A stretch of DNA of 25,192 nt from a virus. Position 1 is the first letter of the stretch. Each line of letters starts with the position of its first letter. This document shows positions 9,001 to 12,000 of this stretch, in pieces. The position numbers are program-made. The stretch lies in the UHGV virus genome UHGV-1402771. One strand, 5' to 3'.

Positions 9001-12000
9001 TGTGATTGACGACATAAAGCTCTGCGCCGTGGAATGGCACGTTGATAGTAGATACTGCTGTTGCTATACTTTTCATGTCAGTTTTTCCTCAAAATTTACT
9101 GGCGATTTAAGCCCGAGCTACTCGCAATAGCTTGGGCTTTACTCATTCTGGACAAACAATTCCATCCTTAGCTACTGACTCCTTTAGTCTCCTCAATACC
9201 TCATTACTGAACGACCGATCATCCTTTTTCGCGGACTGCTCCAAAGCCTTTTCTAGCCATTCTGGCATCCTTAATGTCTTAACTTTCATTTTTGCTCCTT
9301 TGTATATGGTACGCATACATAGTATTTAGGTACGCATTGATAGTCAATAGATACCTACATATCCTGTGGTAAATAATTATTCAGGATGCGCCGATGTCTG
9401 ATCGTAAGTACAAAAACCCTCAAGTGAATCTGAGGCTTCCTGTAGAGATAAAGGAACGTCTTATTGAGCTGGCTGAGGCTAATTCTCGTTCATTAAATGC
9501 TGAGATGGTCGCGGCACTTGAAGCGTGGACCGAAAAAAATAAACACATTCAAGCACTAGACCTTGCAACTATAGCATCGCGGTTGATAGAGCTTGAGCAT
9601 GAGGTTGAGAAGTTAAAATGTATGCATGGCAACGGTGAAAAATGAAACGCATCGCTATTTTGTTAATATTGTTCTTCTCTACAATAGTTTGCGCCAAACA
9701 AAAATCAGATAATGGCTATCTTAAAGGCCTGCAAGAACTCATGATAACTTCGAAATTTGCTGGCATGTGCGGCACAATCAAACAAATGGCAACATTTCAA
9801 GAATCAACAAAAATGCCTGGCGGAGATGAGTTCTTACAGCGTTTTCTGACCACAGAGCAAGCAAGACTTGGAATGAATCCACAGGAGTTTCTTGAAGCAT
9901 GCCAGAAGTCAATTTCAGCTTATACCAATTATTACAATCTAACTTCTGATAAATAATAGAAAGGATTTTATAAATAACTTTATGAAAAAATCACTATTAA
10001 TTATCCCGCTTCTGCTGGCTGGATGCGCAAAAGTAAGTGACTATCAAGCAAGTTGCGAACAACGCTATCCAAAGCTTAGTGATATGGCTAATTGCCTTGA
10101 TGCCAGCGTGAAGAACGACTCACGCATGGCATCAGCACCAACACCTAAGCTGTATGTCCTTGCTGCGAAGATGCTCGGGCAAGGTGTCGATGAAGGCAAG
10201 ATAAGTGACGCACAGGCAAGACTTGAGCTTCAGAATCTTTATGTTCAATTACAAAGCCAAGAACAAGCCCAACAAATAGCACAAAGCCAAGCATTCCAGC
10301 AGGCTTTATTGAATTATCAGGCTGTAAACACAATGCAAGCGATCGAGCAAAAAGCGAGACAGCCTGTTATAACTCAACCTTACCCAACGCGTGTTGACAC
10401 CTATACAAACTGCAATTCAGGATTTGGAAACACCGTCACATGCAACAGTAGCAGCAACATTAGATAAAGCTATTCATATTCATTCATACCGCTTAACGAG
10501 GCGACAATACCAGCTCTCGACAAGCGATTGAATTCATCGCTACCAATAGCATCGCGTATTGCTTTTACGGCGGCTTTATTTGCCATAAATCTGCGTTCCG
10601 CCGCCGCTAATGCTTCTTTACTTCCGCCAGCTCTTACTGCTTTCGTGGCTTCCTGAACTGCTTTCTCTATCGCATATCGGCCGCTACGCGTGGTGGCAAT
10701 TTTAGATACAGCACCTTTTAACCCGGCGCCAACTAAAGCACCTGCGGCAGCGCCTGCAATGCCCCCTCCTGCTCCACCAACAATGGCACCTGATGTTGAG
10801 TTGGCAATTGCATTTAACACTGTTGATGTGACGTTGGATAAACCGGCATCCAGATCGCGTAGTACATTGGCAGTTCTCCCTGTTCTTTCAATATACTGCT
10901 GAGGTTTCACTGCTGCTCTTGCAAGAGTGCCATATGCATCAGCAATTCTTCCGAGTTCTGAGGAATATCTGCTAATGGCTTTTACATTTTGTGGGGTAAG
11001 TATCCCTGCGATATGGTTAATTCCTGCTGCATCAGCTTTGCCACCACGTACACCATGCGAGATAGCATCTTGCAACATTGATGATATAGCAGGAACACGC
11101 TCTGATTCTGGCAGCGCGCGGATCATAGAATGGAACCCAGCAGGACCATTAAGACCTTTAGCTGACGATGATTGAAGGGATTTTACTCCATTCGTAATCA
11201 GTGCATCTGTTGCCAAATCACGCCCGAAAACAGACTCTGCACTCTCTTGTGCTGATAACCTCGCTTTAGACAGATCATTAGCTTTCTGCCAGTCATCAAG
11301 AAATCCGCCGTTTTCCGCCATTGTGCGCATATCATCAGTAATTTCCCGGCGTATTTCCCATGCTCTCCTTGCCGCATTTGCCTCTCCGCTACGCTTATAT
11401 TTTTGCTCCGCATCAGCAAATTTCGCTCTCCATGCTTTCATGCCATCAAATGTTACTCCACCTTGATTGTTTGCCTGAACAAACTGTTTCATTTCAGGAG
11501 TAAGCGGTATGCCAGCAGATCGCTCTGCCTGAATAACGGCATTACCATTTAGCATTCTTGCTTTTTGATTTGGCATTGTTGACCGCACGTCATCCCATGC
11601 CGCGCGCTCGGCATCCTTCATCTGATCAAGATTTTGAAGAATCCTTTGTTTTATAGCCGCACTTTTTTCTGATGCCGTTCCAGATGCGGCCCCAAATTCA
11701 TCAAGGTTTCGACTTAACTTTGATGATATTTCGTTAAATGCTGCCTGATGGGCGTCCTGAACAATTCCTGGTGTTGATGCCAATGCGCCTTCGGCTTGTG
11801 CAATTCCACGACTTCCAGATCGCATTCCTGGTGTTAATGCGTTTATATCAATTCCAGCAGACTCAGCCGCTTTTGCTACATCTTCGGACACATTAGCGGC
11901 CTGACTGGCAATTGACTGACGCCCAGCACCTGACTTTGCCATCCTGGAAACATCATTAGCAGAATTCAGTGCTGCACCACCAAGAGCCTGTGAAACCCTT

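Follow-up and report, generated by a model that had tools for sequence, protein, structure and literature searches.

Two independent envelope cargo genes behind mnt in a CUS-3-like prophage, including a predicted lipoprotein in the position of sieA

In P22-like phages, the superinfection-exclusion protein SieA is encoded between genes 16 and 9, and it blocks the E-protein-mediated delivery of DNA through the gp7/gp20/gp16 conduit (PMC10883804). SieA types A-C were defined by Leavitt et al. 2024, and sieA is present in only 22 of 66 P22-like phages, about one third (PMC10883804). The DNA analyzed here is a stretch of 25,192 nucleotides (nt) from the UHGV virus genome UHGV-1402771 (referred to as the window). 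The window is a CUS-3-like, K1-specific, P22-like prophage in which two genes for exported proteins, orf104 and orf161, follow the repressor gene mnt. One of them, orf161, replaces sieA in position and is unrelated to sieA in sequence.

Three further kinds of phage protein are relevant for comparison. The Llp protein of T5 and the Cor proteins of phi80, N15 and HK022 are small, disulfide-containing phage lipoproteins that block the entry of related phages from the periplasmic side of the outer membrane. The Sp (spackle) protein of T4 is a Sec-exported, helical, periplasmic protein of approximately 100 amino acids (aa) that inhibits the gp5 lysozyme of the incoming phage and protects against superinfecting virions. 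The Ltp protein of the Streptococcus phage TP-J34, as it is cited in PMC10883804, is a lipoprotein expressed from the prophage, and it stops the injection of DNA once the phage has adsorbed.

The ant, mnt and gene 16 sequences of the window are 94-97% identical to those of the K1 phage CUS-3. In the P22 record, sieA is located between gene 16 and mnt and on the mnt strand, which agrees with the sieA-equivalent position that the initial annotation had given to the two genes of the window. This placement, together with the gene calls, the export signals, the ATGA coupling of orf104 to mnt and the orientation opposite to the late operon, was borne out by the list of open reading frames (ORFs), by the sequence and by the P22 record. 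The genes on the opposite (minus) strand include gene 16, gene 20 (PF16928), gene 7 (PF25688), ant, arc and the endosialidase tailspike gene. The guanine-plus-cytosine content is 37-41% over orf104 and orf161 as against 45-53% in gene 16, and with this atypical composition, their patchy presence in close relatives and their strand against the late operon, the two genes have the features of phage morons, or accessory cargo. Both proteins are conserved down to approximately 30-50% identity with invariant cysteines and export signals. Spurious ORFs were rejected on this ground, and the conservation indicates that both genes are under selection. Thus, orf104 and orf161 are real genes for envelope cargo. 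They are uncharacterised and independent of each other, they fall within a familiar general class (prophage morons and candidate factors for exclusion or immunity), and they show no departure from known prophage biology.

Comparisons with SieA separated position from sequence. A tblastn search with P22 SieA, in which the type A protein was the only query, recovered the P22 locus alone and nothing in the window or in the other orf104 and orf161 loci. The motif FxRYPxEAxxFNK, which is cytoplasmic in SieA, is absent from the translations of orf104 and orf161. In hydropathy profiles, the signal segment at the N-terminus was the sole hydrophobic segment of orf104, and mature orf161 had no transmembrane (TM) segment, while the P22 SieA control showed multiple TM segments. 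Membership of the SieA family is not supported, as the position agrees and the TM topology, the motif and the type A sequence do not.

The N-terminus of orf161 (MKKSLLIIPLLLAGC, followed by AK) contains a canonical lipobox in which LLAGC occupies residues 11-15, with Cys15 and an Ala at position +2. The lipobox is retained in all 78 full-length relatives, in which the +2 residue is mostly Ala, otherwise Val, Thr or Glu, and in none of the 78 Asp. Because it combines a signal-peptidase II lipobox with the absence of the Lol-avoidance Asp, orf161 should be an outer-membrane lipoprotein, and as judged by the Lol rule and its cysteines it should face the periplasm and contain two disulfides. Four further cysteines are kept in 75 of the 78 relatives, and the invariant residues of the family alignment include C15, C25, C38 and C154. 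The protein is laid out as an N-terminal helical domain (C25/C38), a long Gln-rich helix at approximately residues 76-125 (about 50 residues), a Pro-rich linker and, at the C-terminus, a hairpin bridged by C144 and C154. In the AlphaFold2 (AF2) model, the predicted local distance difference test score (pLDDT) was 65 overall and approximately 80 for residues ~20-100, the sole confident part, and the Pro-rich linker was of low confidence. The family corresponds to phrog_6067 ('unknown function') and bears the RefSeq name 'lipoprotein'. A search of 5.8 billion proteins yielded 94 clusters, from hosts that include E. coli, Citrobacter, Serratia, Klebsiella, Cronobacter, Pectobacterium, Yersinia, Tatumella, Morganella and Providencia, with identity to the window protein dropping roughly with host distance. 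The gene is present in 186 of 5,426 complete E. coli genomes (3.4%).

In a synteny survey that was not an exhaustive census, and in which the scan of genome contigs gave five loci, every context read (approximately 14, from nine genera) was a P22-like prophage or phage. In each of them, orf161 lies in the interval that separates the tailspike gene from gene 16, and its strand is the opposite of that of the late genes. These 16-9 intervals come from E. coli O104 and O26, Yersinia, Providencia, Tatumella, the Proteus phage Brookers, Pectobacterium and Morganella. The gene has kept this slot even where the mnt and gene 16 alleles on either side have diverged to 23-35% identity. Within E. coli, an orf161 allele with 98% identity is linked to gp16 proteins that are only 35-36% identical to that of the window (35-100% overall) and to Mnt proteins with 34-99% identity, and orf161 behaves as an independent mosaic module. 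In Morganella prophages (loci L028-L030 of our survey, ~4893-5490), mnt, arc and ant are absent and the orf161-family lipoprotein is the sole gene between the tailspike gene and gene 16, so that this homolog must be able to use its own promoter. In the contexts and phage records examined, sieA and orf161 were never found together, and no polytopic SieA-like ORF was detected in the 13 intervals scanned by hydropathy.

Since orf161, in the contexts read, is confined to P22-like prophages, always occupies the sieA slot, never accompanies sieA and is retained despite the divergence of its flanks, it most likely acts on a target that is specific to infection by P22-like phages. Its most likely role would be to exclude P22-like phages while their DNA is being delivered, at the outer membrane or in the periplasm. 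The protein would act from the inner face of the outer membrane against DNA delivery by the superinfecting phage, and its target may be the penetration of the needle or of gp7, the assembly of the gp7/gp20/gp16 conduit, or a secondary receptor in the outer membrane. Of the candidate envelope-acting exclusion or conversion function that had been suggested for both genes, exclusion by orf161 fits its confinement to sieA-free 16-9 intervals of P22-like prophages. The gene orf104 is not specific to these phages.

The same interval holds other, unannotated envelope proteins in P22-like phages and prophages. These include a 139-aa lipoprotein (LLSGC) in phage 720R6 (L003, 3448-3867, minus strand), a 117-aa lipobox protein (LSAC) in a Pectobacterium prophage (L031, 5493-5846, minus strand), a 112-aa protein with four TM segments in Tatumella morbirosei (L013, 6440-6778, plus strand) and the 61-aa signal-peptide protein Kapi1_060 (L016, 4758-4940, plus strand). 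With such lipoproteins, secreted proteins and membrane proteins in other P22-like prophages, the slot is a general hotspot for envelope-acting cargo.

The N-terminus of orf104 (MKRIAILLILFFSTIVCA, followed by KQ) has the n, h and c regions of a signal peptide and a V-x-A signal-peptidase I site. A lipoprotein assignment was rejected: Cys17 is not conserved and alleles end in IANA before E at this site, and the protein is consequently a signal-peptidase I substrate. The mature protein has approximately 86 aa, three helices and two invariant cysteines (C43 and C87). Across the family, G41, C43, F64, R75 and C87 are invariant and the loop FQESTKMPGGDEF is nearly so, and in the AF2 model (pLDDT 78, three helices) this loop is the most confident part. 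An N-terminal hydrophobic stretch is present in 216 of 231 full-length members, and exactly two cysteines are found in the mature part of 218 of them. From its sequence and model, orf104 is expected to be a soluble protein of the periplasm, with three helices and one disulfide.

The family of orf104 (phrog_19844, 'unknown function') is much larger than it first appears. A word-indexed search returned only 18 close clusters, and an exhaustive profile search returned at least 286 clusters at 50% identity, of which 205 had E<=1e-10; the profile search of 90% clusters gave 338. Its members, found in Enterobacterales, Pseudomonas, Methylophaga, Nitrosomonas, Microbulbifer, Sulfurimonas and uncultured phages, are without exception labelled 'hypothetical', and none has a Pfam domain. 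In two of them (P0122, 202 aa, and P0240, 208 aa) the domain is tandemly duplicated within one polypeptide. Relatives are found in the mnt-gene 16 slot of P22-like prophages, among them Kapi1_059, for which a DeepTMHMM signal peptide is annotated. They are also found as an opposite-strand moron within a Mu-like head-gene cluster, in the early region of another phage, and in a Pseudomonas integrative (defence) island beside genes of a cyclic-oligonucleotide-based anti-phage signalling system (CBASS) and HsdR-like genes. These contexts, together with chromosomal ones, do not agree with a specificity of orf104 for P22-like phages. Because the family is carried by many kinds of mobile element, orf104 is more likely to be a general periplasmic binder or inhibitor than a P22-specific factor. 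Its invariant loop may act against a periplasmic activity borne by a phage or a toxin, and orf104 would thus be a general protective protein. In complete E. coli genomes it is present in 61 of 5,426.

Neither protein could be assigned to a known family, which agrees with the initial annotation, in which neither had been recognised. Pfam, NCBIfam and PADLOC gave no significant family for orf104 or orf161, profile searches of the PDB and a fold-library comparison gave no matching entry, and literature searches by accession and locus tag returned nothing on either gene. The suggested remote-homology and structure-prediction checks thus produced models (pLDDT 65 and 78) and no informative match. 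The matches to GspK (E=9e-4) and to an Rz-like spanin were low-complexity or signal-peptide artefacts, well below cut-offs. A Cor/Llp assignment of orf161 was rejected as well, since the only match, to phrog_1119 (Cor) at E=0.078, covers residues 1-29, which are the signal peptide and lipobox.

The adjacency of the two genes is not evidence of a two-gene system. The order mnt-orf104-orf161 is shared, at 97-99% identity, by 18 complete E. coli genomes, among them genomes of the O104:H4 outbreak lineage. An adjacent orf104 was found in only ~18 of the 186 E. coli genomes that carry orf161, and the two are not a functional pair. The gene orf161 follows mnt alone in O26:H11, Yersinia, Providencia and the Proteus phage Brookers, and it is the only one of the two in phage 720R6. 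In E. coli K_EC180, mnt is followed by orf104 alone, and the 4-nt ATGA-type overlap is kept although the Mnt protein is only 31% identical. In this K_EC180 prophage (L018, 3828-7315), the orf104 allele is followed by an opposite-strand Panacea-domain gene, and a pseudogene with a lytic-transglycosylase domain is annotated in the place of gene 16; the element looks like a decaying or rearranged P22-like prophage. In CUS-3 itself, the cargo between mnt and gene 16 is different and consists of a second mnt, two hypothetical genes and hkcB. As each gene occurs alone behind mnt and adjacency is rare, an obligate two-gene system was rejected.

The expression of the two genes was considered from the anatomy of the locus. 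On the plus strand, mnt, orf104 and orf161 overlap or lie close together, and no terminator-like site was found between 9000 and 10700 except at 10680, so that none separates the three genes. Co-transcription of orf104 and orf161 with mnt is well supported by this anatomy. With orf104 coupled to mnt and orf161 only 25 nt further on, both proteins should be made whenever Pmnt fires, and by analogy with P22, Pmnt should fire in the lysogen. The Mnt protein of the window is 94% identical to that of CUS-3, and it has 42% identity to P22 Mnt over residues 8-43, the DNA-binding part. Upstream of mnt, promoter-like sites are present on the plus strand at 9337-9365 and 9348-9377 and on the minus strand at 9347-9319, a number that is not above shuffle expectation. 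They are overlapped by two repeats that are candidate Arc/Mnt operators, one direct (21 nt, 9308-9328 and 9329-9349) and one inverted (18 nt, 9323-9340 and 9344-9361). This control region is near-identical in CUS-3 and in the O104:H4 prophage. Its layout resembles the annotated, overlapping Pant and Pmnt promoters and operators of P22, and its sequence is unlike that of the P22 operators.

The initial annotation had argued that genes driven by the maintenance-repressor promoter are expressed in the lysogen, and that this position holds superinfection exclusion in P22. The promoter argument applies to the window and does not describe P22 sieA, as the P22 record shows mnt and orf59a, then a terminator, and then a separate sieA promoter. 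At the distal end of the operon, orf161 ends with the stop codon at 10465-10467 and the convergent gene 16 with that at 10470-10472, which leaves 2 nt and no terminator between them, and the earliest terminator-like hairpin on the plus strand is at 10680-10707, approximately 215 nt inside gene 16. RNA of the mnt operon therefore probably continues antisense across the 3' end of gene 16, as STnc6030 does in phage BTP1.

Taken jointly, the view that the variable interval between gene 16 and the tailspike gene holds the immI region (ant, arc and mnt) and, added to the mnt transcription unit, two cargo genes that were acquired independently, with orf161 acting in exclusion and orf104 as a protective binder, is one we hold with a little less than even confidence. 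The more specific proposal, that orf161 represents a new outer-membrane-anchored superinfection-exclusion system of P22-like phages in at least nine Enterobacterales genera and that orf104 represents a separate, broad-spectrum, mobile family of periplasmic defence proteins, is tentative and on balance doubtful. Several observations weigh against these views. In the lysogen of the related Kapi1, mnt RNA was below the detection threshold (PMC12922286), and Pmnt-driven expression may thus be weak. Since sieA of P22 lies outside the mnt operon, the positional analogy is looser than had been claimed. The five phage records with orf161 (all Lederbergvirus) and the two with orf104 show no overlap with the 41 records that carry P22 sieA, but sieA is missing from most P22-like phages and a non-overlap of 5 versus 41 is statistically weak. 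It could also be that orf161 keeps its position because P22-like genomes accept cargo there, and not because of its function. In addition, relatives of orf104 also occur in non-phage chromosomal and variable regions, and the AF2 models are only moderately confident and match nothing informative.

One or both of the proteins, especially orf104, may instead be orphan immunity proteins against periplasmic toxins, such as amidases, glycosidases or lipases of type VI secretion systems (T6SS), colicin-like toxins, or toxins of Rhs or contact-dependent inhibition (CDI) systems, and the lysogen would then gain a competitive edge and not phage resistance. We consider this unlikely, although it has a precedent in the same slot. 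In a P22-like prophage of Tatumella terrea (L011, 5604-5942, plus strand), a 112-aa signal-peptide protein of the Rap1a family of T6SS-amidase immunity proteins (PF18602, E=1e-13) is encoded in the mnt-gene 16 slot directly upstream of an orf161-type lipoprotein, which indicates that a P22-like prophage can carry orphan immunity to an interbacterial toxin in the sieA slot. The T. terrea protein also has weak PDB matches to Tai4. Like Rap1a/Tai4 and typical periplasmic immunity proteins in general, orf104 is small, Sec-exported, all-helical and disulfide-bonded, and its family is scattered, with tandem duplicates, over unrelated mobile elements and variable chromosomal regions. However, the orf104 profile aligned to T. 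terrea Rap1a with an hhalign probability of only 0.2%, no PF18602 match was obtained for orf104 at E<=1, where the T. terrea protein served as the positive control at E=1e-13, and the motif FQESTKMPGGDEF is unlike Rap1a, so that a Rap1a/Tai4 relationship was rejected. Furthermore, no recognisable effector or toxin gene was found beside the chromosomal orf104 homologs, and the strict occurrence of orf161 in P22-like prophages is not expected of a toxin-immunity protein.

A role in lysogenic conversion, in which the proteins alter the host envelope (for serum resistance or host interaction, as with Bor and Iss of lambda) with no effect on phages, has a small chance of being correct. Bor is a precedent for a lipoprotein expressed from a lysogen promoter, and the genes of the window encode envelope proteins on the prophage strand in prophages of pathogens (K1, O104:H4, O26:H11 and enterotoxigenic E. 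coli). On the other hand, no similarity to Bor, Iss or TraT was obtained in Pfam (E<=1) or PHROG (E<=0.1) scans, the orf161 family is equally found in plant-associated or environmental genera (Pectobacterium, Tatumella and Serratia) and in a sewage Proteus phage, and its confinement to one phage type favours a phage-related role. Only a very slight chance is given to an effect that stems partly from RNA, with the mnt-orf104-orf161 transcript acting on gene 16 in the manner of STnc6030, an antisense RNA to the 3' end of the BTP1 injection gene that excludes BTP1 (PMC7067206). The short distance between the convergent stop codons and the location of the first plus-strand terminator-like site inside gene 16 are consistent with such an effect. 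This argument is purely positional, however, and it leaves the strong protein-level conservation of both ORFs unexplained; in addition, the 10680-10707 hairpin is weak, and the folding of 10440-10640 gave an unremarkable z-score (-1.2).

If orf161 does exclude P22-like phages, it would constitute a second, outer-membrane-side handle on the trans-envelope channel of podovirus ejection proteins, and it could explain why K1 and other pathogenic lysogens resist therapeutic P22-like or K1 phages. The exclusion hypothesis is specific, and it bears on how podovirus ejection proteins cross the envelope. The orf104 family, with hundreds of unannotated clusters, is a candidate for a new Pfam family of protective proteins in the periplasm. 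Should both genes lack a phage phenotype, the locus would still be a clean example of independent morons stacked behind a repressor gene. The features of the locus and its surroundings are listed in Table 1. The acetyltransferase next to the tailspike gene is probably the K1 capsule O-acetyltransferase that is typical of CUS-3-type prophages.

Table 1. Features of the mnt-orf104-orf161 locus and neighboring genes in the window
Feature	Position	Strand	Description
Tyrosine integrase	2807-4000	+	Beyond the tailspike gene
Hexapeptide-repeat acetyltransferase	4240-4953	-	Adjoins the endosialidase tailspike gene
Endosialidase tailspike	5107-8052	-	
ant	8153-9076	-	PF10547/PF10548; divergent half of immI with arc
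arc	9143-9316	-	PF03869; divergent half of immI with ant
arc-mnt control region	9308-9393	none	Candidate face-to-face promoters, operator-like repeats
mnt	9394-9645	+	83 aa, Arc/Mnt-family ribbon-helix-helix repressor (PF03869, E=3e-10); first gene of the operon
orf104	9642-9956	+	104 aa, predicted Sec-exported periplasmic protein; ATG overlaps the mnt TGA (ATGA)
orf104-orf161 spacer	9957-9981	+	25 nt, AAGGA at 9962-9966, without terminator
orf161	9982-10467	+	161 aa, predicted lipoprotein, lipobox LLAGC
Gene 16-type ejection (DNA transfer) protein	10470-12587	-	97% identity to the CUS-3 DNA transfer protein; convergent with orf161

Among the known systems, T4 Sp offers an analogy for orf104, and neither sequence nor fold similarity to Sp was found. 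The protein orf161 has the export and anchoring logic of Llp and Cor. Llp and Cor come from FhuA-dependent siphoviruses, in which their genes adjoin that of the receptor-binding protein, whereas orf161 is about twice as long and has in addition a long helix and a C-terminal hairpin. The mechanism of TP-J34 Ltp is the one proposed here for orf161, although Ltp functions in a Gram-positive host, has a siphovirus tape-measure target, and is unrelated in fold and sequence, with no match in our searches. The closest comparison remains P22 SieA, which orf161 resembles in its slot, its orientation on the mnt strand, its size of approximately 160 aa, its predicted envelope location and its predicted expression from the prophage, as cargo of P22-like phages. 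SieA has no signal sequence and spans the inner membrane with 3-4 TM helices, whereas orf161 appears to be a lipoprotein without a TM helix, and orf104 a soluble periplasmic protein. In summary, orf161 may be a functional analog, and not a homolog, of the inner-membrane protein SieA.

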